Shown: positions 8,138-36,430 of the stretch, one piece after another
Layout: each line of letters opens with the position of its first letter
Numbering within the stretch: position 1 is the stretch's first letter
Assembly (NCBI GenBank): GCA_965213705.1
Contig: OZ243913.1
Coordinates: 1,536,001 to 1,600,000, forward strand
Length of the DNA: 64,000 bases
Source of the DNA: Trueperaceae bacterium
GTDB taxonomy: Bacteria > Deinococcota > Deinococci > Deinococcales > Trueperaceae
Direction: 5' to 3'
The notes under the pieces: generated by a model
What the model was told of the DNA's origin: nothing
The model's input: only the letters and a program-made list of their open reading frames with translations
Database searches by the model: none
Position numbers and translations under genes: made by a program

Positions 8138-8410
8138 TTAGAAGCCCACCGCGGCCTCGAGCGAGTCGGGGAGCAGCCAGGCCGCTTTCTGCAGGGCGGC
8201 GCTCTGCGCTTCGGAAAGCGTTTCTCTCGCGCCGCGAAACTCGACGCCGTCCTCTTTGTGCCGACCTTCGAACAGCCACACGAAAGGGTGCTCGTCCGAA
8301 CCGAGTTCGTCGTCTTCGCCCGGAATGGGTGTGGCGGGGTCGAGCCAGGCGCTCAAAACGAACTCGCCGTAGTCCAAAAGGTGCTGCCCTCCGTCGTATC
8401 GCCAGGTCAT
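8138..8410 (-). CDS. Small acidic hypothetical protein, candidate LexA-regulated
   Basis: 90 aa ORF with leaderless promoter TTGCTT-17-TATTAT-7-ATG. Confidence 0.7.
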   Translation of the reverse strand: MTWRYDGGQHLLDYGEFVLSAWLDPATPIPGEDDELGSDEHPFVWLFEGRHKEDGVEFRGARETLSEAQSAALQKAAWLLPDSLEAAVGF

Positions 8411-8428
8411 ACCTTAGATAATAAGGTA
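8410..8428. promoter_or_regulatory. Palindromic operator copy 1: TACCTTA-GATAA-TAAGGTA
   Basis: Perfect 7-5-7 palindrome covering the -10 and start codon of 8138-8410. Confidence 0.8.
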
Positions 8429-8834
8429 AGCCGTCTCAAAAAGCAAGCCCCGTGTGAATTTTTTGGGGTTGTGGCTTGTGTGGCAGCGGTACCGCGATTT
8501 TAGAAATGACTTTCAAGAGCTTCAACTGTAGGGATTGGGACCGGCTCGAGCCCGGCGGGGGACGCCCGCTTGACGGTGCGACGGTAGCGCGGCCGTGACC
8601 CTGGACTTAAGCCTAGTCGTGAGCCAGCGGGTGTTTCAGCAGGCCAAAAACCTGCTCGCCGAAGTCGCAGGGTCGTCCGGCCCGCCCGCTTCGTAATCCT
8701 GCGGCGCTTGCCGGGTTTGGGCATTGCTGCTTACTGCGCTCGAGTTTCGGTCCTGTTTCGACCGCTGTTTTGACCGCTGTTCCGACCACTGTGTCAACCA
8801 CGTCTCGACTGGGGTATGCGGTTAAACTGAAGAC

Positions 8835-9914
8835 GTGAAGAGTCAAGCTGAGGAAAAACGAGTTGCGCAAAACCTAGTTGCGCAGGGCGAAGCGGCGGAG
8901 CAGCGGACTGCCGAGAACCTGGCACCTGCACCCGTCATCGTCGTCACAGGCGCGACCGGCAACGTTGGCGAGTGGGTGGTGCGCGGCCTGTTAAAGCGCG
9001 GTGCGCGCGTCCGCGTTGCGGTGCGCGACCCCGAGGGGGCCGAAGCGTTGTTCGGCCCCAGGGCTGACTACGTGCGGCTCGAATTCGGCGAAGAAGGAAC
9101 TTACGAACAAGCGTTCGCGGGCGCTCAGGCTTTGTTCCTGATTCGCCCGCCGCAGATTGCGGACGTCGCGCGGAAAATTATTCCGGCGCTAAAAGCGGCC
9201 AAGCTGGCCGGGGTCGAGCGTGTGGTTTTTCTGTCGCTGCAGGGTGCCGAGCGCAACAAGGTGGTGCCGCACCGCCGCGTCGAGGACCACCTCAAAGCGC
9301 ACGGGCCGGCCTGGACTTTTCTGCGGCCCAGTTTTTTTATGCAAAACTTGTCCACCACGCACCGCCGCGACATTGCGGTGCATGACGAGATTTTCGTACC
9401 CGCCGGTGCCGGCCGCACCAGCTTTATCGACGTGCGGGACGTGGCCGCCGTCGCCGTCACCGCGCTCACCGAGCCGGGTCACACCTTTGAAGCCTACGAG
9501 TTGACCGGCGAGGCGTTTGACTACACCCGAGCCGCGCGCATTTTGAGCGCGGTGCTGAACCGACCCATCGCTTACGCCAACCCGTCACCGTGGCGCTTTT
9601 GGCGGCGGATGCGCGGTTACGGTTACCCGGCCGGTTACGTCGGGGTGATGCTCGCGCTCTACACCGCCTGCCGGTTCGGTCTGGCCGCACGCGTCACGCC
9701 CGAAGCCGCACGCTTGCTCGGTCGTGCGCCCCTCTCTTTCGAGCAGTTTGCCCGCGACTACGCCGACTGCTGGCAGAAACCGGCCGCCGTTCCGAGCACG
9801 GGTGAGCCGGAACCTGCTGAGCGGAAGTTTACTGAGTCAGAACCTACTGAGTCAGAACCTACTGAGCCGGCGCACGGCAAGACGGCGTCGGCACCAAAAC
9901 CGGAGGCAACATGA
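8835..9914 (+). CDS. NmrA-like NAD(P)H-binding SDR
   Basis: VTGATGNVG, LRPSFFMQN; leaderless TAAACT 6 nt before GTG; TESEP tandem repeats in the tail. Confidence 0.85.
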   Translation: MKSQAEEKRVAQNLVAQGEAAEQRTAENLAPAPVIVVTGATGNVGEWVVRGLLKRGARVRVAVRDPEGAEALFGPRADYVRLEFGEEGTYEQAFAGAQALFLIRPPQIADVARKIIPALKAAKLAGVERVVFLSLQGAERNKVVPHRRVEDHLKAHGPAWTFLRPSFFMQNLSTTHRRDIAVHDEIFVPAGAGRTSFIDVRDVAAVAVTALTEPGHTFEAYELTGEAFDYTRAARILSAVLNRPIAYANPSPWRFWRRMRGYGYPAGYVGVMLALYTACRFGLAARVTPEAARLLGRAPLSFEQFARDYADCWQKPAAVPSTGEPEPAERKFTESEPTESEPTEPAHGKTASAPKPEAT

Positions 9915-10381
9915 GCTTTATCGGTAACCTCGTCGGCGCCGTGCTGCGTCCCCTGCTCGAGCGCCAAGCCAAAAACCGTTCGTTGGAAGAGTTGGCGGCA
10001 GCCCTCGAGCGCTCTGGGACGGAGGTTAAAAAACGCCTGGAAGCTGCGCCCGACACGCCACGCAACCGGGAGGTCGCCAACCACATCGTCGGGATAGAGC
10101 GCTGGGGTCAGCGCCGTCTCCGGACGGCACTCGGCGAACCGCTCACGTCCGACCCTTACCACGGCTACCGCCTGCCCGAGGACGCCTCTTTGGACGACCT
10201 GAAAAACGCCTACGCCAAAACGAGGTGGGCGACCCTCGAGCTGATAAGCGAGTTGAAAACGCAGCGGGTCGACGCCGCGCGCAAAGTTCGCCACAACGAT
10301 TTGGGCGAGCTGAGCGTCAGGGGTTGGCTCGCCTACCTCGACGGGCACGCGAAGCGCGAAAGCACCCGGCTGAAAGCGTGA
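9911..10381 (+). CDS. DinB-superfamily four-helix protein
   Basis: EVANHIVGIE...HNDLGELSVRGWLAYLDGHA pattern; ATGA overlap. Confidence 0.65.
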   Translation: MSFIGNLVGAVLRPLLERQAKNRSLEELAAALERSGTEVKKRLEAAPDTPRNREVANHIVGIERWGQRRLRTALGEPLTSDPYHGYRLPEDASLDDLKNAYAKTRWATLELISELKTQRVDAARKVRHNDLGELSVRGWLAYLDGHAKRESTRLKA

Positions 10382-10438
10382 CGTTCCCGGCTATTTGCTC
10401 GAGCTGACGGGTTAGGCCGCACCCTTTTCCAAAAGGCT

Positions 10439-10491
10439 CCGCCGCAGACTCGAACCGCCGCAGACCCAGACCGCCGCAGACTCGGACCGCC
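10439..10491. repeat. 16-bp tandem repeat, about 3.3 copies (CCGCCGCAGACYCRRA)
   Basis: Read directly in the intergenic sequence. Confidence 0.8.
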
Positions 10492-10645
10492 TGTCTTTTT
10501 GGCCCGCACCGGTTGGCGGAGCCGGCTCACGTCGCTGAAAAGGCACTCGGCTTCGGCCGGTCTTAAACCGTGCATGACGAACGCCCTCAGCTTGAGCGCT
10601 CTTTCGGGAGACCGGCTGCAAGTTCGGCTCTGCTAGACTGAACCC

Positions 10646-10885
10646 GTGGGCGGTTGGATAGGCAAGGACTTAGACTTAGGCAGCTATTTTTTCTCGGTGC
10701 AAGACCCGACTGTGTGGACCTGGCTCGCCCTGGTAAACAGTGTGCTCGGGCCTTTTTTCGCCCTGCCCGTGCTGTGGAACCCCAAGCTCGGCGCGTTGCG
10801 CAAGCTCGGCTGGATAGGTCTCGGTTTTGCGTTGCCGCCGGTCGCCATGCTCGGCTACTGGCTGTGGGCGCGGCGCTCGAGCTGA
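10646..10885 (+). CDS. Small membrane protein
   Basis: Two hydrophobic segments; leaderless TAGACT 6 nt before GTG. Confidence 0.6.
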   Translation: MGGWIGKDLDLGSYFFSVQDPTVWTWLALVNSVLGPFFALPVLWNPKLGALRKLGWIGLGFALPPVAMLGYWLWARRSS

Positions 10886-10926
10886 TGCCCCGGCCGGACC
10901 CCGGTCGGCGGGCGAAAGAGGCGGGT

Positions 10927-11865
10927 TCAGGTATGCGGGTTCGCGGCGTAGGGTTCTCGGGCCTGGCGTAACGCCTCGACCTGTTCTTGCGTAACGGGTT
11001 CCGAGCCCAAACGCCCAAACGTCTCCGGCCCGCCGTGTTCGTCCGAGCCGCCGGTGACGGGCAACCCGAACAGTTTGGCGAGGAGTGCGAAGTGCCGCCG
11101 CTGCTGTCGGTTCAACCGGTAGTGAAAGACCTCTATACCGTCCAGCCCCATCTCGACGAGTTCGGCCAGGCCGCGCTCGTTCAAAAGTTCCAAGTCGGTC
11201 GCGCGCCGCACGATGGACGGGTGCGCGAGCACCGCGACGCCGCCCAAACTGTGGACAAAACGGATGGTCTCGGCCATGCCCGGCGCGGCGTGCTCGCTTG
11301 TCCAGGCCGTTTCCGCCATAGCGGTGTCGAGCACCTTTGCGGCCTGGGCGGAACTCCCCACCAGACCCTGGCGGGTCAGGGAGTCGCGCAGGGCCAAAAA
11401 GCCGGGGAAGTCCGCGTGGGTCGCCAGCACGTCGTCCAAGTGGAGTTTGTACCCCAACGTCTGCAGAGTCTGGCACACGACCTCCGCCCGCGCGGTAAGA
11501 CGTGCGCGGGTGTTCGTCTCGTGCTCCAACAGCAGTTCGTGGTAAGGGTCGATAAAGTAAGCCAGAATGTCGATGTCCGGCCCGCCGCCGTGCCCGACGT
11601 AGCCCGGCCAGGCCGCGGTCAGTTCGGTGGCGGGGATGAGTTCCAAGTCCAGTTCACGCGCCAGGCTCGCGCCTTCGCGGCTCGCTCGAGCCGTTTCGTG
11701 GTCGGTAATCGCCACGGTCTGCAGCCCTTTTCGCTTGGCCCCAGTGAGGAGTTCCAAAGGCGACGAACGCCCGTCGGAGTAAAAAGTGTGCGTGTGCAGG
11801 TCGACCGGATGACGTTCGGTGTCCGACGGTTGGGGTTTTGAGGACGAAGCTCTGCGTTTGAACAT
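10927..11865 (-). CDS. PHP-domain phosphoesterase
   Basis: DLHTHTFYSDG, AITDH, LAHP, GGSDEHG. Confidence 0.9.
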   Translation of the reverse strand: MFKRRASSSKPQPSDTERHPVDLHTHTFYSDGRSSPLELLTGAKRKGLQTVAITDHETARASREGASLARELDLELIPATELTAAWPGYVGHGGGPDIDILAYFIDPYHELLLEHETNTRARLTARAEVVCQTLQTLGYKLHLDDVLATHADFPGFLALRDSLTRQGLVGSSAQAAKVLDTAMAETAWTSEHAAPGMAETIRFVHSLGGVAVLAHPSIVRRATDLELLNERGLAELVEMGLDGIEVFHYRLNRQQRRHFALLAKLFGLPVTGGSDEHGGPETFGRLGSEPVTQEQVEALRQAREPYAANPHT

Positions 11866-11951
11866 CGGGCTCGAGCATACTTTACGGCTTGGACCCTGAC
11901 CGTGTTCTGGGCGGGTTCGTGTTGAGCGGGTTCAATCTGTTAGCATCGCGC

Positions 11952-12770
11952 ATGACTATAGGACTCGTTTTAAGCGGCGGCGGCAGTCGCTGTCTCGCGC
12001 ACATCGGGGTACTCAAGGCTTTGGAAGAGCGCGGCGTCGGCTTGGACGCCATCTCGGCCTGTTCGACGGGCGCGTTCGTGGCCGCGCTCGCCGCGGCCGG
12101 ACACGGTTCGGCCGCCATCCAGGACATCCTGAGCGCTAACCTGTTCAGCGTGATAAGTCTCAGCAAAGACAGCGGTCTGGCCGACCAGGACGCCATCGCG
12201 GCGCTGCTCCAGGAACACCTGCCCGCGCGCTTCGAAGACTTGAAGCTGCCGCTGGCGGTCGTCGCCGCCGACATTCAAAACGGCGAGTCGCTCGTCCTCA
12301 GGAAAGGCGCACTCGTCCCGGCACTGTGCGCCAGCAACGCTTTTCCGGGGCTGTTCGACGCGGTCGAACTGGGGGGCCGCTTTCTCATCGACGGAGGCAT
12401 CTTGAACAACGTGCCGGTCGACGTCATCAAGGTGTTGACGACCTCGCCCGTGCTCGCCGTCGACGTCAGCCAGCCGAAGACGGAACGGGTGGACTTGGGC
12501 GACAAAAAAGAGGGCTTGCTCCACCGACTCGCCGGCGCCGTGACGCAACAGGTGACCCTGCCGGTCGCCATGCTGCGCAAGTCCTACATCGTCGCGCAGA
12601 GTTTTATCACCGAGGTTCGCTTGACGATGCACCCGCCCGACCTGCTGGTTTGCCCCGACTTGGGCGATTTCGGCATTTTCGACTTCGGCGACATCGACCG
12701 GGCGGTGGCGGTCGGCTACCAGGCCACGCTGGCGGCGCTGGCTCAGGAAGGCTACAAGCTCGAGCGCTAA
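11952..12770 (+). CDS. Patatin-like phospholipase
   Basis: LSGGGSR, ACSTG nucleophile elbow, DGG; leaderless TAGCAT before ATG. Confidence 0.9.
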   Translation: MTIGLVLSGGGSRCLAHIGVLKALEERGVGLDAISACSTGAFVAALAAAGHGSAAIQDILSANLFSVISLSKDSGLADQDAIAALLQEHLPARFEDLKLPLAVVAADIQNGESLVLRKGALVPALCASNAFPGLFDAVELGGRFLIDGGILNNVPVDVIKVLTTSPVLAVDVSQPKTERVDLGDKKEGLLHRLAGAVTQQVTLPVAMLRKSYIVAQSFITEVRLTMHPPDLLVCPDLGDFGIFDFGDIDRAVAVGYQATLAALAQEGYKLER

Positions 12771-12964
12771 GTATCTCCGTGGTAAATTTGCTCCTGCAAA
12801 TTCACCCGAGTGGAGCGAGTACGGATAGACCGACTGAGCATTCTGCAAAGTCACCCTAGATTAGCTTAAAGCTCACCAGACCTCTTTTACAAATCCAGTT
12901 GCAACGCTGGTTGCCAGTCTTGTTGCTCAGTTGACACGGGTTGAGGGCGGTTTACTCGGCTTCG

Positions 12965-13504
12965 TTACCGCCGCGTTTTCTCAGCGGCGTCGGGGACGAA
13001 GCCTCGCGATTCACCCCTGGCGATGGAAAGTGTCTGCCAGTCGGCACCCTTAAGGTGTTTCGCCAGCAGCACGATTTGGCCGACGTGTTGGGCGTAGTGG
13101 GCGGTCTGCCGCGACAGCGCCTCGAGCACGGTGTGTTTTTGCCCGCGAATCCTCACGGTTTGCAACAGGTGTTCCGGCGTGAGTTCGTGCAGGGTTGTAA
13201 ACAGCGCCGCCCAACCCGCTTCCCAAACCTGCATCAGCTCGGCGGGTCCAAGGTCGTCGACGAACTCTTCGTCGCGCTGCCGGTCGGGTTTCTCGCCGTC
13301 ACTCGTCAAAAAGTCGCGCCAGCGTGAACGCATGTTGCCCGACAAGTGCTTGACGATGACGGCGACGGAATTGCCTTCCGGGTCGAGTTGCCGGTGAAAG
13401 TCCGCGGGCTCGAGCTGCGCCAGTGCTTTTTCGGCTAAACGTTTTTGGCCGCGAAAAGTCGCCGCGGCCGTCTCCAAATAGTGCTGTTCCAACGACTGAG
13501 GCAT
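12965..13504 (-). CDS. DUF1572 / DinB-family protein
   Basis: NSVAVIVKHLSGNMRSRW.DFLTSDGEKP.R.RD.EF; HYAQHVGQI. Confidence 0.85.
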   Translation of the reverse strand: MPQSLEQHYLETAAATFRGQKRLAEKALAQLEPADFHRQLDPEGNSVAVIVKHLSGNMRSRWRDFLTSDGEKPDRQRDEEFVDDLGPAELMQVWEAGWAALFTTLHELTPEHLLQTVRIRGQKHTVLEALSRQTAHYAQHVGQIVLLAKHLKGADWQTLSIARGESRGFVPDAAEKTRR

Positions 13505-13572
13505 AGACAAAAGTGTACACGAACATGTTGGCGCGGCGACCCTTTGCTAAAAACTTGGCCTGAGTCTTGGGT

Positions 13573-14217
13573 TCAGGCCGCTTCTCTGAACAGCTCGTCC
13601 ACGACCGCGCCGCGCAAAAGCGCGTCGTAAACGCCCGCTATGTACACGTCCGTCAGGTCGACTTCGATAGGGGCGTACGCGCGGTTGTGCGGTCTGAGCG
13701 AAGCGGTGCCGTCGGGGTGCAAGTCCAGGTATTTCAAGGTGGTTTCGTCTTCGTGTCTTACCGCGCAGATGTCGCCGTTTCGGTAGGGCGCTTTTTTCAG
13801 GATGACGACGTCCCCGTCTTGGATGGGCTCGCTCATTGAGTCGCCTTTGACCCGCAGGGCGAAGCGGTCTTCGCGGCCCGGCACGTTTAAGAAGCCTTCT
13901 AAGTGCTCGACCGCCTCGTGCAGACCGCCGGCGGCGATGCTGCCCAGCAGCGGGACGCCCTGCTGCAGGGTGCCGTCGTCGCCAAGGGTCAGGTTGCCGT
14001 ACTCAAACAGCCGGATGATGGGCGGTTTGCCCCGGCCTTGCGTTTGAAACGTCAGGTAGCCTTTGGTGTCAAGGGCTTCCAAGTGCTGCTTCAGCGACAC
14101 GTAGTGCATGCCCACCGCTTTGGCGACGTCGTTTAGGTTCGGTTGCCCGCCGCGCTCTCGCCACTGCTTTTTGAGCAGCGTCAACACGCGCTGCTGTGGT
14201 TGGGTCAGTTCAATCAC
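13573..14217 (-). CDS. lexA: LexA-family repressor (wHTH plus S24 autopeptidase)
   Basis: LTQPQQRVL N-terminal wHTH; VPLLGSIAAG cleavage site; GDSM Ser; TLK Lys; GTG start at 14217 after AAAGGGG. Confidence 0.85.
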   Translation of the reverse strand: MIELTQPQQRVLTLLKKQWRERGGQPNLNDVAKAVGMHYVSLKQHLEALDTKGYLTFQTQGRGKPPIIRLFEYGNLTLGDDGTLQQGVPLLGSIAAGGLHEAVEHLEGFLNVPGREDRFALRVKGDSMSEPIQDGDVVILKKAPYRNGDICAVRHEDETTLKYLDLHPDGTASLRPHNRAYAPIEVDLTDVYIAGVYDALLRGAVVDELFREAA

Positions 14218-14241
14218 AGATTCATCCCCTTTGTCAAGAGA

Positions 14242-14260
14242 CACCTTAGATAATAAGGTA
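14242..14260. promoter_or_regulatory. Palindromic operator copy 2: CACCTTA-GATAA-TAAGGTA, between lexA and SRAP
   Basis: 18 nt identical to copy 1; overlaps + strand TTGTCA-17-TAAGGT promoter; lies just downstream of - strand TTGACT-18-TACTCT promoter. Confidence 0.8.
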
Positions 14261-14337
14261 TTGTTACAGAGTAAGACGAACCCCGTGCGCAAGTCAAGCG
14301 CAAGACTTTACAAGTGGGAGTTTACCGGGAGGTTTTT

Positions 14338-14988
14338 ATGTGCGGTCGCTACGCGGCGAAGTGGGAGCCGGCCGAGTTTCAAAACGTGTTCGGCGTTCAG
14401 CCACCCTTGTTCGAGAGCTACAACGTAGCGCCGACGCAGTACGCGCCCGTCGTGTTGCGTCGAGGCGAGCGGGAAGTGGTGTTCGCCCGCTGGGGGCTCG
14501 TTCCTCGTTGGGTCGACAAACCGCTCGACTTTAGGGCGAACCTGTGCAACGCTCGAGCCGAAACCCTGCCAGAAAAAGCAAGTTTCAAGCGCCCGTTCAA
14601 GTCTCAGCGCTGCTTGGTCCCGGCCTCGGGCTTTTACGAGTGGCGGAAAGTCGGGGCAGCCAAGCAACCCTTCTACATCCGTTTGGAAGGCGCTGCGCCT
14701 CTGGCCTTTGCAGGTCTTTACGACCACTGGCAAAAAGACGACCAGAGCTTTTACTCTTACACCGTCATCACGACCTCACCCAACGCGTTTATGCAAAACA
14801 TTCACGACAGGATGCCGGTCGTCTTGGCGCCCGAGCACTTCGGGACCTGGCTGGGCGAGGACGGCGACCCAGGGGACTTGGAGGCCCTGCTCAGACCTTA
14901 CGAGGGTAACCTGGAGGCTTACGAAGTCGACAAAAGGGTCGGCAAAGTCAGGGAAAACGACGAACACCTGCTCGAGCCTGTAATCTAA
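14338..14988 (+). CDS. SOS response-associated peptidase (SRAP / YedK / HMCES, abasic-site protection)
   Basis: N-terminal MCGRY, YNVAPTQ, NARAET, GFYEW, IHDRMP; GGAGG RBS. Confidence 0.95.
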   Translation: MCGRYAAKWEPAEFQNVFGVQPPLFESYNVAPTQYAPVVLRRGEREVVFARWGLVPRWVDKPLDFRANLCNARAETLPEKASFKRPFKSQRCLVPASGFYEWRKVGAAKQPFYIRLEGAAPLAFAGLYDHWQKDDQSFYSYTVITTSPNAFMQNIHDRMPVVLAPEHFGTWLGEDGDPGDLEALLRPYEGNLEAYEVDKRVGKVRENDEHLLEPVI

Positions 14989-15062
14989 AGAAGCGCTCGC
15001 GCCGCCCGTCTAGAACACGCGCGGCGACGGCGGGCTAAACTGGTCTCAAAGGGGGGTGGCGA

Positions 15063-16067
15063 ATGGTTTCGACCACACACAGGACAAGTCAACAGGGGTT
15101 TGGCCGGGCGGCCTCGGGTGAAGTAGCCGAGGGCGTCGTTCGGGTTCCCACCGTTTTTGTAAACGCGTACCTGGTCGACGCGCCCGGCGGAGCCTGGGTG
15201 CTGGTGGACACGGGCCTGCCCGGTTTCGCTTGGCGCGTGCGTCAGGCCGCGGCCGCGCGTTACGGGGCGGGGTCGCGGCCGGCGGCCATTCTCCTTACCC
15301 ACGGCCATTTCGACCACGCGGGCTCGGCTTTGGAGCTGGCTAAAAGCTGGGACGTACCCGTTTACGCCCACAAGCTCGAGCTGCCTTACCTGACCGGGCG
15401 CTCCGACTACCCGCCGCAAGACCCCACGGTCGGCGGCGCTATCGCGCAGATGTCGCGGGTTTTTCCGCACCACGGTTACGACTTCGGGCGCTACGTGCGC
15501 GCGCTGCCGGAGGACGGCCGCGTACCCGCCCTGCCGAAGTGGCGCTGGCTGCACACGCCGGGCCACACACCCGGTCACGTTTCGCTGTGGCGCGCTGCGG
15601 ACCGCACGCTGCTGGCGGGCGACGCGTTTGCAACCATGAACTTAGACTCGTGGGTGTCGCAAGTAACGCACGAGCGCGAGCTGAGCCGCCCGCCGGCCCC
15701 CTTCACCCCCGACTGGGCCGCGGCGCGGCGGTCGGTCGAGGTGCTCGCGGCCCTGGTGCCTGCACGCGTCGCCGCCGGGCACGGCCGGTCGTTGGCCGGG
15801 CCGGCGTTGGCGGCGCGGTTGAAGGGTTTTGCCGCCCGCTTCGTGCCCCCGCCGCACGGTCGCTACGTGGGCCGTCCGGCGCGTGCCGACGCGAGCGGCA
15901 CGGTCGCGCTGCCCCCGCCGGTCGCCGACCCCGTGCTCGGCAAAGCTGCCGCGGTCGTGGGTGGTTTGGGGTTGGTGGGGTTGGCCGTGGGGGTGTACGC
16001 CCTGTCGCGCCGTAGCGACGGCGTTTCAAAGGATACCTCTGCAAACTTCAGCGGGTCGAGCTTGTGA
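15063..16067 (+). CDS. MBL-fold metallo-hydrolase
   Basis: LTHGHFDHAG, TPGHTPGH, GDA, GHG. Confidence 0.9.
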   Translation: MVSTTHRTSQQGFGRAASGEVAEGVVRVPTVFVNAYLVDAPGGAWVLVDTGLPGFAWRVRQAAAARYGAGSRPAAILLTHGHFDHAGSALELAKSWDVPVYAHKLELPYLTGRSDYPPQDPTVGGAIAQMSRVFPHHGYDFGRYVRALPEDGRVPALPKWRWLHTPGHTPGHVSLWRAADRTLLAGDAFATMNLDSWVSQVTHERELSRPPAPFTPDWAAARRSVEVLAALVPARVAAGHGRSLAGPALAARLKGFAARFVPPPHGRYVGRPARADASGTVALPPPVADPVLGKAAAVVGGLGLVGLAVGVYALSRRSDGVSKDTSANFSGSSL

Positions 16068-16359
16068 GGCGGCCTGTTGCGCTCAGCGCAGAAGAATTCT
16101 TTCGTGACCGGCTGCGCAAGTTCGGCACGACACGAGCCGACGTTTGTTTCTAAGGTCGAGCGGGTGAACGTGCCCACGCGCCTCTCGAGACCGTGCGGAT
16201 TCCGGCGGTCGGGGTGCTCGAGCCGCGTGAGGCACGCTAAAACGTGCTCCAGTGCGCAGAGTGTAGCAGTCGTTCCGGCCTACATTGGCTGTTGGGTACG
16301 TGGAGTAGGTTACACTCGGAAGGTTCGGTAACCTACAACTAGCAACGAAAGGGGAGACT

Positions 16360-16872: not shown

Positions 16873-17252
16873 CCGATGACAAACGTTCTTTAGGTGACAT
16901 CGTCGGCGACGTGACGAGCGAGTTCGGCACGCTCGTCCGTGAGGAAATAGCCCTCGCCAAGGCCGAAGTCCAGCAAACGCTTTCCCAAGCGGTCGGCGAC
17001 GTCGTCGCCATCGTTCTGGGTGGGTTCGTCGCTTACACAGGCTTGTTGGTGCTCATTGCGGCGGCCGTCCTGGGTCTGGCGACGGTGGTTGCGCCGTGGT
17101 TGTCCGCGCTCCTCATCGGCATCGTCTTGGCACTTGTCGGCGCGATTCTGCTGCGCCGCGGCATCAAAGACCTCGGCAACCTGTCAGGCGCACCCAGAAC
17201 GGCGGAAACCCTCAAAAGAGACGCCGCGATGGTGAAAGAGAAACTGCCGTGA
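16869..17252 (+). CDS. YqjE-like 'phage holin family' membrane protein
   Basis: RSLGDIV...LVREEIALAKAE, two TM segments, PRTAETLKRD. Confidence 0.85.
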   Translation: MTDDKRSLGDIVGDVTSEFGTLVREEIALAKAEVQQTLSQAVGDVVAIVLGGFVAYTGLLVLIAAAVLGLATVVAPWLSALLIGIVLALVGAILLRRGIKDLGNLSGAPRTAETLKRDAAMVKEKLP

Positions 17253-18181: not shown

Positions 18182-18206
18182 GCCTCAGCGGTTAAAAACT
18201 GTGTCC

Positions 18207-28470: not shown

Positions 28471-28647
28471 AAAGGTTCCGTCGGGTTCGAGGGGCTTGGT
28501 GGCTTACGGGCTCGAGCCACGCCCGGAAGTCTAACACGGTGCGTTGCCGGGCGGTGTGTCCGTACCGGTTACCGCACTGCTCGTGCGGACGGCGGGTATA
28601 GGGTTCTGGAAAACGGTGCGGGCACTGCGCGCACGGTAACCTGACCC

Positions 28648-30213
28648 GTGCCGGGTTCCCCCCCAAAACCGAACTTTGCCGCGAGCTACGCCGCCGGAGC
28701 GCTGAACGAGTTTTACGCGCTGTCTCCGGGCGACATGAGGACCGCCCTCGACCTGCCCAGACCTGTCGACCGCGACCCGCTAGCGGCGGCGCTGAAAAGT
28801 CACGCCACGCGGCTCGGCGCGCCCCAGCCCGTTTACGCCCAGATAGAACGGCTGCGCCACCCGGACAGCCGCGCGGTCGTGACCGGCCAGCAGGCCGGGC
28901 TGCTGCTCGGCCCCAGTTACACCCTGTCCAAAGCGGTCACGGCGTTGCGTCTGGCAAAAACTCTCTCGACCGAAGCCAAACCCGTCGTGCCGATTTTTTG
29001 GGTCGCCAGCCAAGACCACGACACCGCGGAGGTCGACCGCGCTTACCTGCTCGACCTGAACGAAGACCTGCACAAGCTCTCGCTGCCCTTGCCGCGGGGT
29101 GTGGCTTCCGGCCGCATCGAGTTCAAAGACGCTTGGCTCGAGACGCTCCTCGCCGACTTGGGACCCCTCGCCTCGAAACCACCGCATTTTACCGAAGTTA
29201 CCGCGTTGCTGCGCGAGGCGGCAGCGGTCTCGAACAGCTTTGCCGACTTTTTCGCTGCGCTCTTGTACAAGCTGCTAGGCGCGTACGGGCTCATCGTCCT
29301 CGACCCGCTCGAGCCCGAGCTGGCAACCCTGTTCAAGCCGCTCTTGAGGGCGGAACTCGAGCAGCCGACCGCCTCGGCAACGGCCGTGAACGAGGCCGGG
29401 GAAAGAATTGCAGCCCACGGCTTCAGCCCGCAACTCGGGCGCGGGGCGGGCGCAACTAACCTGTTTTTAGAAAGCGAAACCGCTCAGCGGCAACTCCTTC
29501 GTTTCGACGGCGAAACCTTTGCGACCGACGCGGGCGAGTACGTTCAGCAAGAGGTCCTCAGGATTTTGGAACAAGACCCAAGCCGCCTCACGCCTGCGGC
29601 GGGTTTGCGGCCCGTGACCCAAGACTTTGCGCTGCCGACCGCCGTCACGGTCGTCGGGCCGGGCGAGTTGCGCTACTTTGCCCAACTGGGGGGCGTCTAC
29701 GACCTTCACCGCGTCGCCATGCCGCTCGTGTGGCCGCGCGCGACCGTCACCGTTTTGGAGCCCCCGGTCGCGCGCATCCTGGACAAGTTCGGTCTGGACG
29801 CGTTGGACCTCACCCAAAACTTTGCCGCCCTCAAAAACAGGACGCTGCTCAGGCTGCACGGTCACGCCGAAGGTTTCGAAGGTACGCTGGCGACGCTCGA
29901 GACCTCGCTCGAGGCCTTGCTCGAGCACCTGCGCGCCGTCGACCCGACCTTACGAGGCACGCTTGACAAAAGCGAAGAGAGGTTGCGCACCACGCTGGAC
30001 GTGCTGCAGACCAAAACCGCTCGAGCCCTGGCGCGCGAGGACAGCACCTACACACGGCAGTTCGACCGCCTGGAAAAACACCTGCTCCCGCTCGGCCAAC
30101 CCCAGGAGCGCGTCGTCAGCCCCTTCAGCTTTTTCTTAAAATTCGGCGTCAAACCCGTTTTGGACGCGTTCTTAGCCGTCCCGCCCGAGGGCGACCACAT
30201 CGTCACCCTTTGA
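28648..30213 (+). CDS. bshC: Bacillithiol biosynthesis cysteine-adding enzyme
   Basis: VTGQQAGL.GP.Y..K, FWVASQDHD, GPGE..Y, PQER. Confidence 0.9.
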   Translation: MPGSPPKPNFAASYAAGALNEFYALSPGDMRTALDLPRPVDRDPLAAALKSHATRLGAPQPVYAQIERLRHPDSRAVVTGQQAGLLLGPSYTLSKAVTALRLAKTLSTEAKPVVPIFWVASQDHDTAEVDRAYLLDLNEDLHKLSLPLPRGVASGRIEFKDAWLETLLADLGPLASKPPHFTEVTALLREAAAVSNSFADFFAALLYKLLGAYGLIVLDPLEPELATLFKPLLRAELEQPTASATAVNEAGERIAAHGFSPQLGRGAGATNLFLESETAQRQLLRFDGETFATDAGEYVQQEVLRILEQDPSRLTPAAGLRPVTQDFALPTAVTVVGPGELRYFAQLGGVYDLHRVAMPLVWPRATVTVLEPPVARILDKFGLDALDLTQNFAALKNRTLLRLHGHAEGFEGTLATLETSLEALLEHLRAVDPTLRGTLDKSEERLRTTLDVLQTKTARALAREDSTYTRQFDRLEKHLLPLGQPQERVVSPFSFFLKFGVKPVLDAFLAVPPEGDHIVTL

Positions 30214-30830
30214 CTGTGGCTCCGAGCTACCTGCTCCACGACCTCGAGGACGCTTTAGAGAAGACCGAAGACTGCATCCTGTGCTTTTTGGAACGCCGTC
30301 AGGTGGCGCGTTACTTGGGGGGCGTCGCCGCCGACGGCGTCAACAACGTCCCCTTGCGGCAAAAACTGGCCGCGCGCGGCGGCTACTGCGCCCCGCACAG
30401 CGCCGAGTTCGCGGCAATGGCGAGCCCGCTGTCGGCGGCGATTTTGCTTGCCGCTTTCGTGACCGAGCGCCTGGAGCGCGCGGCTCAGGGCAAGCGCCCC
30501 GTACCTCTGCGTTGCGAAGCTTGCGAGGTCGGCGCAAAAACGCGGCAGAGCTACGTCAAGAGCGTCGCTAAAAACGGCAAGTCGCCGGAGGTTCAAAAAA
30601 TTCTTTTAGACGGCAACTTGTGTTTGAACCACCTCGAGCTCCTCTGCCGCCACTTGCCCGCCGGTGTTCGTGACGCGCTCGTCGCCCAAAACGACAAGTT
30701 GTTAAAAAACCTGGCCGAACTCGTCCGCAAACACGACTACAGGTTTCAGGCCGAAACCATCACGGAGGCTGAGAAAGGGAGCGTCAAAGACGCCTTGAGG
30801 TTGTTGGGCTCGAGGGAAGAAAACGAGTAA
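30210..30830 (+). CDS. Zn-binding hypothetical protein (DUF6062-like)
   Basis: CILC, GYC..H, CEAC, LC..H, RKHDYRF. Confidence 0.75.
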   Translation: MTVAPSYLLHDLEDALEKTEDCILCFLERRQVARYLGGVAADGVNNVPLRQKLAARGGYCAPHSAEFAAMASPLSAAILLAAFVTERLERAAQGKRPVPLRCEACEVGAKTRQSYVKSVAKNGKSPEVQKILLDGNLCLNHLELLCRHLPAGVRDALVAQNDKLLKNLAELVRKHDYRFQAETITEAEKGSVKDALRLLGSREENE

Positions 30831-30982
30831 ACCCTACAACTCACACGTGCAGCGGTGCCGAGAACGGTTGAAACGACTCTGCACTACCGCCAAAAGACAG
30901 CCGACCCACAAGGCTGCCTTTCCTCAAAAAGGAGGAAGAATCAAAAGCCGTTCAGCAAAGTTGGACGGAAAGGCTAGCGTAA

Positions 30983-31011
30983 GCCCCTCGTTCGGAATTC
31001 GAACAAGGGGC
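30983..31011. terminator. Hairpin between convergent genes
   Basis: GCCCCTCGTTCG / CGAACAAGGGGC. Confidence 0.55.
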
Positions 31012-31059
31012 CGGGTCCGGCATTCGTTTTTAGAAGCTGCCTCGAGGGTCGTGCTGGCG

Positions 31060-31398
31060 CTAAGCGTCGTCCCGGTCGTTGATACGCGCGGGTGGCGAGG
31101 TCGCCTCGACGGCGGTGAAGGTCTCGAGAATCTTATACGTGTGCTTGGCGTCTTTGGGCACGAGCCAGGAGTCGCCGCTCTCGAGCAGTACCATCTGGCC
31201 TTCTAGGTGCAACTCGGCGCGGCCGCTGACGACGTAGCCGACGGTTTCGTACTCGCGGCTCATCTCGGGCTTGGGCTCGCTGGCTTCTTCTTTCCACAGC
31301 CGCATGGCGAGACTCTTGCCCGAAACGAGGTAGGTCTGGCCCATCTCGCCCTTGGGCGAGTGGTCGGCGTTGACTTTTTTGATGGTCGTGTCGCTCAT
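31060..31398 (-). CDS. Cupin-domain protein
   Basis: YETVGYVVSG..., GDSWLVPKDAKHTY; GGAGG RBS before ATG 31398. Confidence 0.85.
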   Translation of the reverse strand: MSDTTIKKVNADHSPKGEMGQTYLVSGKSLAMRLWKEEASEPKPEMSREYETVGYVVSGRAELHLEGQMVLLESGDSWLVPKDAKHTYKILETFTAVEATSPPARINDRDDA

Positions 31399-31495
31399 CT
31401 TTGCCTCCTGCGGCAAGTGTTGCACGGCCCACAAAGCCGCACTGTGAGACACGCGCAAATAGCCGCTTCGCGCACGTTCGTGTGACGAGCGGGCG

Positions 31496-32719
31496 TTACT
31501 CGAGCGTGACGGACTCCAAGTCTTGCCGCCGCTCCCGGTCTTTGGCACGCTGCGCGGGCGTTTTGAGCAAGTCGGCTAAGCGCTCGTTGACCGTGTCGTA
31601 GTAGCGAAACACCAGGCTGCCCAAAATCACCATCGTCAACACGTAGAGCGAGGTCATGCCGATAATCGCCTCGCGCGTGCTTTCCGGCAGCGCGCTCACC
31701 CCGGCGGCGAGCCCGGCGATGACGAGCGAGAACTCGCCCCGCGGCAACAGCATCAGTCCGTGCCCGACACTGGCCCTTGGGCTCAAACCGCTCAGCCGAC
31801 CCGAGGTGAAGCCGGTCAGCATGTTCGTCACCACGGTGGCGACGACGAGGAGCAGCGCGGCCGGCAGTTGGGTCAGCGCGCTCAAAATATCGACGTGCAA
31901 GCCGAAGTCCAGAAAAAATGCCGCGGCGGCCACGTCGTACCAGGGGTGGAGCGTGGCTTCCAACCTGTCCTTAAAGCGCGACTCCGCCAGGAGCATCCCC
32001 AGCAAAAACGCCGCCACCGCCTCGGGAAAACCGAGCGACTTCGCCGTGGTCGAAAACACCACGACCAGCGCCAAGGTGAGCAGCACGAGCGTTTCGCCCT
32101 CGCGGTCGAGGAGTCGCTCCAAATAAGGTTTTGCAAACCGCAGCAGCAAACCGTACACCGCCAAAAAGAGCGCCACGCCTAAAAAACTGGCCGCGCCGCC
32201 CCCCGCCGTGACGATGCCCAACCCGCCCAGAATCACCACCATCGCCAGGTCTTCGTAAACGAGCACGCCTAAAGTGCGCTCGGCCTCGGGATAGGCGATG
32301 AGGTCGCGCTCGGTCAGCAGTCTGGCGATGACGCCCGAACTCGAGATGTAGACAATCCCGCCTAAAAACAGCGCCGCCAGCACGCCGAAACCGAGCAGCA
32401 GGCCGATAACGAAGCCCACGACGAAGTTCGCTAAGTCGATGGTTCCCGCCACGGTGATGGCCCGCCGCCCCTCGACGAAGCGCGCCACCGAAAACTCCAG
32501 GCCCATGTAAAAGAGCAGTAAAATAATGCCGAGTTCGCCGAACAGGTCGGTCACGCGGGTGACTTCAAACAGCGTGACGACGCCGTACGGCCCGAACAGC
32601 AGCCCCAGCAAGATGTAGCCGACGATGCTGCTGAGGCCAACTTTGCCGCTGAGCCAGCCCGCCGCGTACAGCCCCAAGGCGATTAAGCCGAACTCCCACA
32701 GGGGCGAGAGGTCCAACAC
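31496..32719 (-). CDS. CPA2 cation:proton antiporter (KhtU-like)
   Basis: LLFYMGLEFS, ISSSGV, LVYEDL, PRGEFSLVIA. Confidence 0.9.
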   Translation of the reverse strand: MLDLSPLWEFGLIALGLYAAGWLSGKVGLSSIVGYILLGLLFGPYGVVTLFEVTRVTDLFGELGIILLLFYMGLEFSVARFVEGRRAITVAGTIDLANFVVGFVIGLLLGFGVLAALFLGGIVYISSSGVIARLLTERDLIAYPEAERTLGVLVYEDLAMVVILGGLGIVTAGGGAASFLGVALFLAVYGLLLRFAKPYLERLLDREGETLVLLTLALVVVFSTTAKSLGFPEAVAAFLLGMLLAESRFKDRLEATLHPWYDVAAAAFFLDFGLHVDILSALTQLPAALLLVVATVVTNMLTGFTSGRLSGLSPRASVGHGLMLLPRGEFSLVIAGLAAGVSALPESTREAIIGMTSLYVLTMVILGSLVFRYYDTVNERLADLLKTPAQRAKDRERRQDLESVTLE

Positions 32720-33223
32720 CTAACCGTTTCCGAGGAGGAGCGCCTGCGCCGCCTGGCACTGGTCGTGCGAACCGATGAGCAGCACCGTGTCGCCCGCCTT
32801 AAAGACCGTCTGCGGGTCGGGGTTGGGCAGGGCTTCCTCGCCCCGCATAATCGCGACGACCGACGCGCCCGTGCGGGTGCGGAGCGGCACCTGGGTGAGG
32901 GTTTGGCCGATGATGGGCGCGCTATTCCCAAGTTCGACCCACTCTATCTCGAGGGCGCCCAGCGCCAGCTCGAGCTTGCCCAAGTCGGGCGCGGCGACGA
33001 ACGCTTGACCCAACAGGTTGGCGAGCTGTTGGGCCTCGTCCTCGTCCAGCTTGACCACGTCGCTCGGGCGGTCGTCTTTGTCCAAAAAGTGGTACACCTG
33101 CCGTTCGCCGTCCGGTTTGACGATAATCGCTAAGTTGCCGCCGTCGCGCAACGGCAGCACGTACTTTTTGCCGACGCCCGGCAGGGTGACCTCGCGGAGT
33201 TCAATGGGGGTGAGCGCTTTCAT
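32720..33223 (-). CDS. KhtT-like TrkA-C regulatory subunit
   Basis: LPGVGKKY, RTGASVVAIMRG...PNP.P. Confidence 0.9.
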   Translation of the reverse strand: MKALTPIELREVTLPGVGKKYVLPLRDGGNLAIIVKPDGERQVYHFLDKDDRPSDVVKLDEDEAQQLANLLGQAFVAAPDLGKLELALGALEIEWVELGNSAPIIGQTLTQVPLRTRTGASVVAIMRGEEALPNPDPQTVFKAGDTVLLIGSHDQCQAAQALLLGNG

Positions 33224-33274
33224 GCGTCCCAGTCTAGCCTGCAGGCGACGCTCTCGGCAAATGGGAACCGGGCG

Positions 33275-33778
33275 TCACACCCGAACGCGCCGGTACACGG
33301 CCGCCGGGAGCAGCGTTTGCAGCGTCATCTCGCCCGGAGCCAAACCGCCCGCCAGCGTTGCCCAGGCCGCCTTTCTGACTTGCAACGGCACGCTCGTCGT
33401 CCCCGTCAGCAGGTAAGACGCCAGCTCGCTCAGGTAGGGTTCGTGCCCGACGAGGGCGACGGTCTCGTCGGCGGGCTTCATCCCTTCGCTGATGTCGATG
33501 AGGAGTTGGGCGTAATCGCCGCCGGTCAGCGTGTCCAGGTACTGCACGCGGCGGCCTTTTGCGAGCCGCCCCGCCAAGCGTTCAGCGGTTTGGGCCGCGC
33601 GGGTGTAGGGGCTCGAGAACAGCCGGTCAAAGGTAACGTCCAGGGTTTTCAAGACTCGAGCCAAGGTTTTCGCCTGCTTGCGTCCTTTGTCGTCGAGGGG
33701 CCGCTGGCTGTCGTCCAGATATTGCGGCGAGCGCTCCCCGGCGCTGGCGTGGCGAATCAGGTAAAGGGTGTGACTCAT
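33275..33778 (-). CDS. sixA: Phosphohistidine phosphatase
   Basis: LIRHA, RPL, SSPYTRAAQTA, VGHEP. Confidence 0.85.
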   Translation of the reverse strand: MSHTLYLIRHASAGERSPQYLDDSQRPLDDKGRKQAKTLARVLKTLDVTFDRLFSSPYTRAAQTAERLAGRLAKGRRVQYLDTLTGGDYAQLLIDISEGMKPADETVALVGHEPYLSELASYLLTGTTSVPLQVRKAAWATLAGGLAPGEMTLQTLLPAAVYRRVRV

Positions 33779-33787
33779 CTGGGACAG

Positions 33788-34420
33788 TCAACCGTCTTGA
33801 AAGCTCGCGCCGAGACTCAGCAGCGCTTCGGCCCTGGTCAACTTGTCACCCGCGTTCGGGGTGAGGCGCACGACCGTGTCGACTATTTCGGCTATTTTTT
33901 GCAACTCGTCGGCGCTCGTGTCGCCCAGCGCCTCTATCTCGGCCTCGCTGAAGTGAACGCTCTGCGCGCCGCCGGGATACTCGGCGCTCACCGCGTCGAA
34001 AGAAAGCGTGGCGAGGTTTTTGCCCCCCCTTGCAACCCGGTAGTTCGTCCGCACGGTGGTGAGGTCGACTTGGCTGCGCAGGGCGGCCGGGTCGACCAGC
34101 GTCGACACAGGTCTGAACACGGCGCTGGGCCAGTCCTCCCCGTTAAAAGGCACCTCTATCTCGTCGCGCTCGTGGAGCGCACCCGAGACGCTGCCGGGCC
34201 GTTTCAGGGTCGCTAGGGTTCGGCCGCTTACCTTGCGTTTGCGCAACGCTAGGCCGTAGCCGTTCAGGGTCCGGGCCGCGTCGTCATAGTAGCGGTCGCG
34301 CTGCTCGACGGTTTCTGCGTCACTCAGGTTGTAGCCCGCTGCCGCGAACACCGGGGCCAGTTCTTCAGGGCTCGGAAAGGCCTCGAGCAGGGAAAACTTG
34401 AGTTCGCGCTCGAGGGGCAT
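33788..34420 (-). CDS. CYTH-domain protein
   Basis: ERELKF, DRYYD, LRKR, EIE motifs. Confidence 0.85.
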   Translation of the reverse strand: MPLERELKFSLLEAFPSPEELAPVFAAAGYNLSDAETVEQRDRYYDDAARTLNGYGLALRKRKVSGRTLATLKRPGSVSGALHERDEIEVPFNGEDWPSAVFRPVSTLVDPAALRSQVDLTTVRTNYRVARGGKNLATLSFDAVSAEYPGGAQSVHFSEAEIEALGDTSADELQKIAEIVDTVVRLTPNAGDKLTRAEALLSLGASFQDG

Positions 34421-34457
34421 AAGGAAAGTTTACAGGTTTTGGGTGGATTGGGTCTCA

Positions 34458-34907
34458 TCACTCGGCAACCGAGTCAAAAGTCCCCACAGCTCTCAGATAA
34501 GTGACGCGCCGACCAACATACAACCATTCTTCGTGATAATAGAACATGATGGAATTGTCTGCGTTGTGAACAACCATTGCGTCATCTCTACTTGGCATAA
34601 ATATATTTATCCAGTTTGCTAAAAAATTGTCGGCATCTAAAACACAAACCTCATGAGGGCTATAGACAATTTGCACCGTTCCTTTGTTACTCAGTCGCTG
34701 TCTAAGCCACGCTAGCGCAACAGCTTCACTTGCAATACTATGTTGCTCGATGTTGTAAGTCGTTTCTTCATTCAAGCCGATACCTGCTTTACTGGAATAT
34801 TTCAGAGCGTAACCATAAGCATTTTGAGCACGTTTTTTGTCAAGCCAACGCGCTTCTAAACCCAACTCTTCATACTCTTTAGGTCGGAAGGATTTCATGT
34901 TGCTCAA
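34458..34907 (-). CDS. AT-rich orphan protein
   Basis: 149 aa ORF with AT-rich codons inside GC-rich context; start uncertain. Confidence 0.65.
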   Translation of the reverse strand: MSNMKSFRPKEYEELGLEARWLDKKRAQNAYGYALKYSSKAGIGLNEETTYNIEQHSIASEAVALAWLRQRLSNKGTVQIVYSPHEVCVLDADNFLANWINIFMPSRDDAMVVHNADNSIMFYYHEEWLYVGRRVTYLRAVGTFDSVAE

Positions 34908-34962
34908 GCATAGATTATCCTACACATTGCGCTATAACATCCTCGCCAAAACCGCTCGAGTC

Positions 34963-36210
34963 TCACGGCTCGAGCGGTTTTGGAATCCGCCGCGCCACCT
35001 GCCCGACGGTCAACCCTTGGACTAAAATGGCGAAAACCACCACGCCGTAAGTCATCGCTAAGATGAGGTGGCGTTCCTCACCCGGCGGCAGCGACAGCGC
35101 CAAGGCTATCGAGATGCCGCCGCGCAAACCGCCCCACACCATCATCCGCACCGTGTAGGGCAAAAAGTTGCGCCGCAAGCGCAATAGGTTGATGGGCACG
35201 CCCACGCTCACCAAACGGCTCAGCAGCACGAGGGGGATGACGAGGAGCGCCGCGTAGAATTCTATGGGCAAGAACTCGACGATGAGCATTTCCAGTCCGA
35301 TGAGGACGAACAGCACCGCGTTGAAAATCTCGTCGGTCATCTCCCAAAAGGTGTCCAGGTGTTCGCGGGTGCGCTCGCTCATGGCGAACAGCCGCCCGCG
35401 GTTGCCGATGAAAAGCCCCGCCACCACCATCGCCAGCGGCCCCGAGGTGTGCAGCGCCAGCGCCAGCGCGTACCCGCCCGTGACGAGCGCCAGCGTGATG
35501 AGCACTTCGACGCTGTAGTTGTCGACGTTTTTTAAGAGGTAATAAGCAATCAAACCGATGACGAAACCGTAAGCGACGCCGCCCAAGGCTTCGGTGGCAA
35601 AGAGCAGCGCCACGCCCTCGAAGCCCGCCTCGCCCCCGCCGTGCCCGGCCCCGACCAGGCTCAAAATCACGCTGAACACCACCACGCCGACCCCGTCGTT
35701 GAACAGCGACTCGCCCGTGATAAGGGTCTCTATGTCTTTCGGCACGCCCACGCTCCGCAGGATGCTCAAGACCGCAATCGGGTCGGTCGGCGAAATGAGC
35801 GCGCCGAACAGCAGCGCGTAAATAAAGGGCAGCTCCAGCCCCAGCAAGCCCGCCAAGCCGTAAGCGAGCCCGCCGACGATAAAGGTCGAGGTAAGCACGC
35901 CCAGGGTCGCCAAAATCAGCACCGGCCACTTTTGTTTGGCTAAGTCTTCTAAGTTCACCGTCAGCGAGCCGGCGAACAGCAAAAAACTGAGCATTCCTTC
36001 CAACACGAGCGCGTTGAAGTCCAAACCGGTCAAAAACCCTTCGGCCCAGTTCCTCACCTCCGGGCTGGCAAACCCCAGAAACAGCAGCGACAACACGATG
36101 GCGATTAAAGTCACGCCGATGGGCGTGGGCAGTTTGATGTAGCGCTCGTTGATGTAACCGAACACCGCGGTAAGGGTGAGGAGGATGGCTAAGACTTCGA
36201 AACCGTTCAT
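34963..36210 (-). CDS. CPA1 Na+/H+ antiporter (NhaP family)
   Basis: [24 protein letters not shown]. Confidence 0.9.
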
Positions 36211-36377
36211 GGAGTCAGTTTAACGAAGTTGGCGCGACGGGGCTCCGGGGGGCAAAAAGTTCAGGCGTTTTCTCAATGTCCTCAGGCCCTTGCACCCTTT
36301 TCAAGACGCCGGCGACACCGCTCGAGAAGCCGGTTGAAAGGCCCTGTTTTATGCGTCTCTGACGTGCTTTCTCGTGC

Positions 36378-36406
36378 TTGACAAACCCGGTGATAAGGCC
36401 TATACT
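36378..36406 (+). promoter_or_regulatory. Near-consensus sigma-A promoter TTGACA-17-TATACT
   Basis: TTGACA at 36378-36383, TATACT at 36401-36406. Confidence 0.85.
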
Positions 36407-36411
36407 GAACA

Positions 36412-36430
36412 TACCTTAGTTTTTAAGGTA
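36412..36430. promoter_or_regulatory. Palindromic operator copy 3: TACCTTA-GTTTT-TAAGGTA
   Basis: Perfect palindrome (extends to ATACCTTA..TAAGGTAT) on the predicted +1 of the promoter above. Confidence 0.85.

Follow-up and report, generated by a model that had tools for sequence, protein, structure and literature searches.

Which regulator reads the three copies of an AT-rich palindrome, TACCTTA-N5-TAAGGTA, that lie scattered over 64,000 nucleotides of a Trueperaceae genome, and which genes does it control? The stretch examined (contig OZ243913.1, positions 1,536,001 to 1,600,000) is called the window here, and its source genome G000. A preliminary description of this DNA had taken the palindrome for a new SOS box that defines a LexA regulon. 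Our results support a LexA regulon with a specificity of its own: recA, uvrA and the two lexA genes with the matching recognition helix are all preceded by the box, which tracks that helix. We consider it about 90% probable, judging from sequence comparisons, that the palindrome is the operator of a LexA clade specific to the Trueperaceae and governs an SOS-type regulon, a reading that predicts both binding and induction.

A 19-bp palindrome in the window and in its source genome

The three palindromes were confirmed at window positions 8410-8428 (box 1, exact, no mismatch, with the same geometry in genomes G001 and G021), 14242-14260 (box 2, one mismatch, between the divergent genes for LexA and an SOS-response-associated peptidase, SRAP) and 36412-36430 (box 3, exact, covering the predicted +1). 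The window holds only these three matches with up to three mismatches allowed; shuffled windows held 0.41 on average, and three were reached in 1 of 100 shuffles. Genome-wide, the source (4.25 Mb in a single contig, 61% GC) carries five exact sites and five with one mismatch, ten in total, and the same half-sites placed at 11 other spacer lengths gave no exact and no one-mismatch site at any of them. A matrix scan of the genome and its relatives, suggested earlier as a check, was run with a symmetrised matrix built from these ten sites. It returned 16 sites above 18 bits in the source genome, the same ten among them, with the next best at 14.7, versus 0-2 sites for ten column-permuted matrices. 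The spacer of the box is almost entirely A/T. Rfam and ARAGORN scans of the window gave no match, so no RNA family accounts for the palindromes.

The palindrome accompanies a LexA clade of the Trueperaceae

Of 61 Trueperaceae genomes (family f1), 42 hold exact matches to TRCCTTA-N5-TAAGGYA; in the rest of the order the figure is 1 of 139. Those 139 genomes comprise family f2 (0 of 60), taken as Deinococcaceae because DdrO, IrrE and the radiation/desiccation response motif (RDRM) are present there, f3 (0 of 12), f4 (0 of 60), presumably Thermaceae, and f5 (1 of 7). When one mismatch is allowed, 20 of 24 family genomes have the box, as do 2 of 16 others, with a single site each; a reversed-pattern control had no match in 40 of 41 genomes. 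All 44 family genomes of one search contained the LexA clade, as did 58 of 60 in another. G019 (9% contaminated and fragmented), one of the two genomes without the clade, is also without the box. Genome G049 was included in the tallies of the recA, uvrA, DdrO/IrrE, dnaE and LexA-clade searches, and we make no claim on it alone.

The window lexA (13573..14217, minus strand; 214 amino acids from an inferred GTG start) had been described as an intact gene directly behind one box, and this was borne out. Its product matches the winged helix-turn-helix (HTH) domain PF01726 at 37.3 bits (cut-off 23.7) and the S24 domain PF00717 at 74.3 bits (cut-off 23.3), carries the helix HYVSLKQHL at residues 38-46 and keeps A96-G97, S127 and K162. 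The core LexA, encoded elsewhere in the genome (1953439-1954062), is 47% identical to it, has the same helix HYVSLKQHL and aligns to a solved LexA (PDB 3jso); both genes are boxed. The LexA of Truepera radiovictrix is 65% identical to the core LexA and belongs to the same clade. As to the window lexA being the regulator, the shared helix and box speak for it, but the gene is a paralogue and the family-wide lexA is the core gene, which is the likelier master regulator. In a quick tree the window LexA groups (support 98) with proteins of G062 and G021 that stand first in imuY-dnaE2 cassettes; in G062 the SRAP gene diverges from lexA. Searches of the source genome turned up neither imuY, imuB-C nor a second dnaE/dnaE2. 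Since its relatives head such cassettes and the source genome is without these genes, the window lexA is probably what remains of the head of an SRAP/lexA-imuY-dnaE2 cassette whose polymerase genes were lost.

The source genome encodes a third LexA (4020103; L034:1441-2157), with helix ISRQNTREHV, which passes TIGR00498 and lies downstream of a DinB-family gene. It was rejected as a binder of the box, since its helix differs and nothing in its vicinity scores above 12 bits. Proteins resembling it appeared as weak matches of 30-37% in just 3 of 61 genomes. A CI-like S24 protein (3200997; L037:1486-2214) has an XRE-looking N-terminus and no box nearby.

Operator and recognition helix vary together

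We compared 108 full-length LexA-like proteins with upstream DNA, 89 of them from the family, leaving out two truncated proteins, three loci without alignment and G049; the tree was a quick, midpoint-rooted one. Upstream of the 66 lexA genes with a Y[VM][ST]L helix, the main box scores above 10 bits in 62 and above 15 bits in 55. None of the 20 genes with a Y[PS]TL helix, which form one clade, has a main box above 10 bits; 19 have a 21-bp palindrome, ACCCT-N9-AGGGT, and many adjoin dnaE2-type genes. The YTTL helix goes with TACCCNA-N5-TNGGGTA in three of three cases. Aligned on the centre, the halves read T-A-C-C-T-T-A (V/M), T-A-C-C-C-N-A (T) and A-C-C-C-T-N-N (P/S), the CC pair being fixed by the search pattern. 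Position -5 is T in 98% of V/M halves and C in six of six T halves, and position -8 is A in 75% of V/M halves and C in 100% of P/S halves. The variable helix residue, right-aligned on HL, matches E. coli Asn41, which we take to be base-reading, in an alignment that is gapped here. The AG/S/K cleavage residues are intact in 105 of the 108 proteins.

Altered boxes also occur away from lexA. G023, whose sole S24 protein is a YTTL LexA, lacks the main-type box even with one mismatch allowed; variant boxes accompany its lexA and a DUF6504 gene. The variant pattern matches this genome eight times (control, once), with lexA and the DUF6504 gene as the only SOS-like neighbours; no dnaE2 follows the DUF6504 gene, and the one recA recovered from G023, of the cinA-linked type, has neither the main nor the variant box. 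In G004 and G054, which have both LexA types, the orthologues of the second uvrA (uvrA2) and of a GemA-like gene carry the variant box and recA keeps the main one. The evidence in these two genomes consists of orthologous positions only, the variant pattern being not enriched genome-wide in G004 (12 vs 8) or G054 (8 vs 6).

Ten f4 relatives have palindromes of another kind at lexA, a 20-bp TRCYTGY-N6-ACAGGYR in seven and a 19-bp variant in three, and in five genomes this box was not enriched away from lexA. In f4 (L233-L242) the lexA gene, with its palindrome of the TACCTGT-N6-ACAGGTA type, is the first either of an imuY-dnaE2 cassette or of a small operon whose primase-like gene is 33% identical to window gene 37895-38845. 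An f5 genome, G086, has four LexA paralogues (L229-L232) with different helices, three of them with a clear upstream palindrome of their own.

Boxed recA, uvrA, ddrA and mutagenesis genes

Upstream regions of 52 recA copies from 36 genomes were scored, four copies without upstream DNA and one at a contig edge having been dropped and three partial matches left out. Stand-alone recA genes score above 15 bits in 26 of 30 cases, cinA-linked ones in 2 of 22, and a boxed recA is present in 28 of the 36 genomes. The second uvrA (n = 12) scores above 15 bits in eight copies and 13-14 bits in two, and has the variant box in two; none of 31 main uvrA genes exceeds 8 bits. Both pairs occur in the source genome. 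Its recA genes (103054-104013 and 3349175-3350131) are 97% identical over the aligned part and only the stand-alone copy is boxed. Its uvrA genes, at 691863-694643 and in the window at 59768..62632 (minus strand), are 59% identical over the first 200 amino acids; only the former is boxed, and the latter, the housekeeping copy, serves as an unboxed internal control.

At an E-value of 1e-60, no recA was recovered from 19 of the 61 family genomes, and several matches run up to a contig edge; duplicate recA genes that are almost identical may disrupt the assembly of short reads.

With three loci left out (two of G049 and one duplicate), 27 ddrA-like loci of the family were compared. A box of at least 25 bits lies within 1.5 kb in 14 of the 15 that are preceded by a small gene, orf163, and lexA is the first gene in seven of those 15; at the 12 loci without orf163 box scores stay at or below 11.4. 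Error-prone polymerase genes are boxed in relatives: imuY in G052, lexA-imuY in G021, G062 and G002, and a dnaE2-type gene in G015. At loci of G002 and G070 (L120, L121), a perfect box precedes a LexA shortened to its 79-amino-acid DNA-binding part; SRAP diverges from it, a dnaE2-type gene lies downstream, and G002 also has an imuY-like open reading frame (ORF). Cassettes of this make-up would depend on the core LexA. In G041, three dnaE matches with equal score lie on contigs C6, C7 and C16, probably an assembly duplication.

Position of the box relative to promoters

A sigma-70-type promoter, TTGACA-17-TATACT, matching at 11 of 12 positions, lies at 36378..36406 (plus strand), and box 3 spans -1 to +18 of it. 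The earlier statement that the boxes always fall on a promoter or +1 holds firmly for this site, but the promoter scanner found none overlapping box 1 or box 2, where a looser script gave 8/12 candidates that overlap or abut them. That the boxes are always intergenic is not true of box 1, whose last base, read on the minus strand, doubles as the A in the ATG start codon of a conserved 90-amino-acid gene. This box ends on that ATG 7 nt past a TATTAT hexamer, and the transcript is likely leaderless. A second promoter-like match (TTGAAG-17-TAAAAT, 9/12) lies on the minus strand at 8497-8525, about 70-100 bp upstream of box 1. Relative to a weak candidate promoter of lexA, box 2 runs from about +1 to +20, and it lies over a -10 candidate of the SRAP gene; at lexA in many relatives, 0-5 nt separate the end of the box from the start of the gene. 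Such placement would fit a repressor acting on short-leader transcripts.

In the mechanism we propose, a LexA dimer would contact the two TACCTTA halves through helix 3 and, by covering the -10/+1 region, would repress transcription. DNA damage would trigger RecA-dependent self-cleavage of LexA and thereby release the boxed genes. The unboxed cinA-linked recA and main uvrA would provide a basal supply, with the boxed copies induced, and both helix-identical LexAs of the source genome (window 13573-14217 and 1953439-1954062) are expected to bind the same box.

Counter-evidence and alternative explanations

Several observations weigh against this assignment. The window and core LexAs both score under the TIGR00498 cut-off of 110.95, at 107.6 (E 6e-31, full length) and 103.4, respectively. 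Four of the 66 lexA genes with a matching helix score 10 bits or less, and one LexA of G086, with helix TLPGLRDHL, has an exact box upstream, a counter-example to a simple helix code. The helix and box counts are not independent because kin share both, and the covariation signal comes down to about four separate helix changes on the quick midpoint-rooted tree. Eight of the 36 genomes have no boxed recA among the recovered copies, four of the 16 sites in the source genome score just 18.8-20 bits, and several targets there are not repair genes (a SocA-like gene, a VOC gene and a site before era).

A different protein could read the box, with lexA a mere target: the regulator of the CRP/FNR family whose gene diverges from the core lexA, or another family-wide factor. 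The CRP/FNR gene (L007:12496-13176) does share its box region with the core lexA in the source genome, and in G024 and G051 CRP/FNR-like genes have the box 114-142 bp upstream, at loci with no lexA match. However, orthologues of the regulator that are 78-79% identical are present in G023 and G019, both without a main-type box at up to one mismatch, and a CRP/FNR protein would leave the separate altered palindrome at each divergent lexA paralogue unexplained. We judge this very improbable. The CRP/FNR gene may itself be a box target.

Equally slim is the chance that LexA binds the box in a network that is not induced by damage through RecA and has been repurposed, for example for desiccation or growth phase. 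In its favour, many of the targets have no characterised function, neither the main uvrA nor the cinA-recA operon belongs to the boxed set, and the LexAs of D. radiodurans are cleaved yet do not control recA (PMC8072749). A repurposed LexA is nevertheless hard to square with cleavage residues kept in 105 of 108 proteins and with a target set that includes recA, uvrA, ddrA and SRAP, joined in relatives by imuY, dnaE2 and photolyase.

Alternatively, the box might have diverged from an RDRM and be read by a pair of the DdrO/IrrE type. The targets overlap the RDR (radiation/desiccation response) regulon of Deinococcus, a member of the same order (ddrA, recA; Table 2 of PMC8533742), but this idea is largely refuted and its probability is close to nil. 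A DdrO query, confirmed against the PDB, gave only partial matches in the 61 family genomes, mostly to the N-terminal HTH and at no more than 50% identity, and a checked IrrE query gave two weak partial matches in the same genomes, none of them in the source genome. The only PF06114 match in the source genome, tried as a candidate IrrE, is not IrrE. A strict RDRM was absent within 400 bp of all eight repair and lexA starts inspected there, ddrA and cinA-recA included, and the same pattern was found at two of three f2 loci with ddrA homologues; it did not detect the ddrO control locus and could therefore overlook weak sites. Chance AT-rich palindromes or a by-product of promoters, whose TAnnnT hexamers the half-sites could supply, can be dismissed at a similarly negligible probability by the lack of matches at other spacers, the empty reversed control in 40 of 41 genomes and the absence of the box from 31 of 31 main uvrA genes.

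Boxed genes of the source genome and other features of the window

The likely target of box 1 is a gene for a 90-amino-acid protein with no assigned function (8138..8410, minus strand). The protein has no Pfam or NCBIfam match; three homologues are 56-88% identical, and a 35% homologue in G021 lies right behind a box. At box 2, a DUF1572/DinB-superfamily gene (12965..13510, minus strand) follows lexA by 62 bp, a spacing at which the two are possibly co-transcribed. The SRAP gene (14338..14988, plus strand; PF02586, E 9e-71) diverges from lexA, an arrangement that recurs in G062, G002 and G070.

Box 3 precedes a candidate operon of four genes, all on the plus strand. The first, orf163 (36479..36970; 163 amino acids), lies directly upstream of ddrA, as in 15 of the 27 family loci, and its product has no Pfam, NCBIfam or Atlas match. 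The second (36977..37780) encodes a DdrA-like Rad52-family annealing protein (PF04098, above cut-off), which over residues 18-152 is 41% identical to the products of RDRM-preceded f2 genes; a PDB search gave no match for it. The third (37895..38845), also behind ddrA in G001 and G021, encodes a primase-like protein with a CHC2 zinc finger and a Toprim-like region, the Toprim Pfam match being below cut-off. An 82-amino-acid Cys-rich zinc-ribbon-like protein (38842..39090; Pfam matches below cut-off) is encoded by what is likely the operon's last gene, and such a gene lies downstream of ddrA at 13 of the 15 orf163-ddrA loci. The repair-type character earlier ascribed to the box-linked genes is thus backed by Pfam for LexA, SRAP, the Rad52/DdrA-like protein and, with its Toprim part under the threshold, the CHC2-Toprim protein. 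A primase had been counted in the regulon, which is right for the primase-like gene 37895-38845 but not for the primase gene 1383-3671 of an integrated element.

Window positions 1-5421 are the right part of that element, about 9 kb long and integrated at tRNA-Val(GAC). Its end (5371-5421) repeats, over 51 bp, the tRNA 3' end at 1532319-1532369 of the source genome. The element has a lower GC content (56%), the RepB-primase/DUF3987 gene 1383-3671, a Hjc-like nuclease and no box.

Genome-wide, the boxed repair and regulator genes are the stand-alone recA (104088), the second uvrA (694719), the core lexA (1954078), the window lexA/SRAP pair (1550242) and the orf163-ddrA-primase-like-zinc-ribbon operon. 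Boxed small genes encode proteins of 90, 126, 156 (GemA-like), 211 and 92 amino acids, with a 95-amino-acid gene in addition; an AAA_24 protein, a VOC/glyoxalase protein and a SocA-like antitoxin are boxed too. Homologues of the 90-, 126-, 156- and 211-amino-acid, AAA_24 and VOC proteins are also boxed in other genera. Two sites, 4005988 and 2471616, have no clear target. The first, an exact match also kept in G001, separates a YbjQ-like gene from era, and a 50-amino-acid ORF starts just behind it. The SocA/Panacea antitoxin-like gene (L006:3080-3604) has a low GC content and lies immediately behind its box. In relatives G024, G051, G052 and G021 the box also stands before photolyase, imuY and a 260-amino-acid gene adjoining SRAP.

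Discussion

What would be new here is a family-wide operator, apparently a variant of the known LexA/SOS system. In the Deinococcus literature, the SOS-independent IrrE/DdrO switch is regarded as the hallmark of repair-gene induction (PMC8072749). The sister family appears to run ddrA, recA and uvrA from LexA, a classical SOS response in place of DdrO/IrrE. The family includes the cultured Truepera radiovictrix, which is highly resistant to radiation, and the need of IrrE/DdrO for extreme resistance becomes directly testable. The box also flags conserved, unannotated damage-response candidates of 90, 126, 156, 163 and 211 amino acids.

A tentative history would run as follows: IrrE/DdrO was lost, and a LexA whose control had been confined to a mutagenesis cassette acquired the repair regulon, Deinococcus-type ddrA and the duplicated recA and uvrA included; the operator is set by a single residue of helix 3 (Val/Met, Thr or Pro), and the hand-over is still under way in genus g4. 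Cassette-heading f4 LexAs close to the tree's base agree with it, as does the wide occurrence of IrrE/DdrO across the order, but we put it at somewhat less than even odds because the tree is quick and midpoint-rooted. Were it true, the family would offer a readable recognition code and a snapshot of a regulon changing hands. Duplicated LexAs have been proposed to shift specificity and then retake a regulon (PMC8565304), and the Trueperaceae paralogues provide matched helix/operator pairs for testing that route.

Compared with E. coli LexA/RecA, the system shares the winged HTH and S24 domains, the Ala-Gly site, the Ser/Lys dyad, a palindromic operator, autoregulation, and recA and uvrA among the targets. 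It differs in the box, TACCTTA-N5-TAAGGTA as against CTGT-N8-ACAG (PMC8565304), in helix 3, HYVSLKQHL, in that only the duplicate recA and uvrA copies are boxed, and in having a Deinococcus-type ddrA as a target. Other LexA boxes given in that source, GGTT-N10-AACC in Geobacter, TTAC-N3-GTAA in Bdellovibrio and GTTC-N7-GTTC in Alphaproteobacteria, are likewise dyads with a low-information spacer. By inspection none of these four motifs equals ours in sequence and spacing, in keeping with the preliminary description, which had found no match among the boxes that it listed; no Trueperaceae LexA box was found described in a literature search outside which most subscription papers lie. The core of our box is CCT-N9-AGG, and that of most f4 relatives is CCT-N10-AGG. 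The nearest core is CCT-N10-AGG, reported for the LexA box of Magnetococcus MC-1.

With the IrrE/DdrO system and RDRM of Deinococcus (PMC8072749, PMC8533742, PMC5552922), the Trueperaceae share a repressor-type palindrome near -10/+1, the targets ddrA and recA, and the order. They differ in the motif, in that DdrO/IrrE were not found in 61 genomes, and in that the repressor here would cleave itself. The available part of PMC8072749 lists IrrE/DdrO homologues in Meiothermus, Marinithermus, Oceanithermus and others, not in Thermus, and does not mention Truepera; it also describes lexA-imuY-imuB-C-dnaE2 cassettes as LexA-controlled. The f2 LexAs are about 30-38% identical to the Trueperaceae clade. 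D. deserti, like the Trueperaceae, has LexA-headed imuY-dnaE2 cassettes, the kind that the closest relatives of the window LexA head, and two recA genes. In D. deserti LexA controls the cassette operon and recA is under IrrE/DdrO, whereas in the Trueperaceae, with imuY, imuB-C and dnaE2 missing from the source genome, the box reaches recA, uvrA and ddrA.

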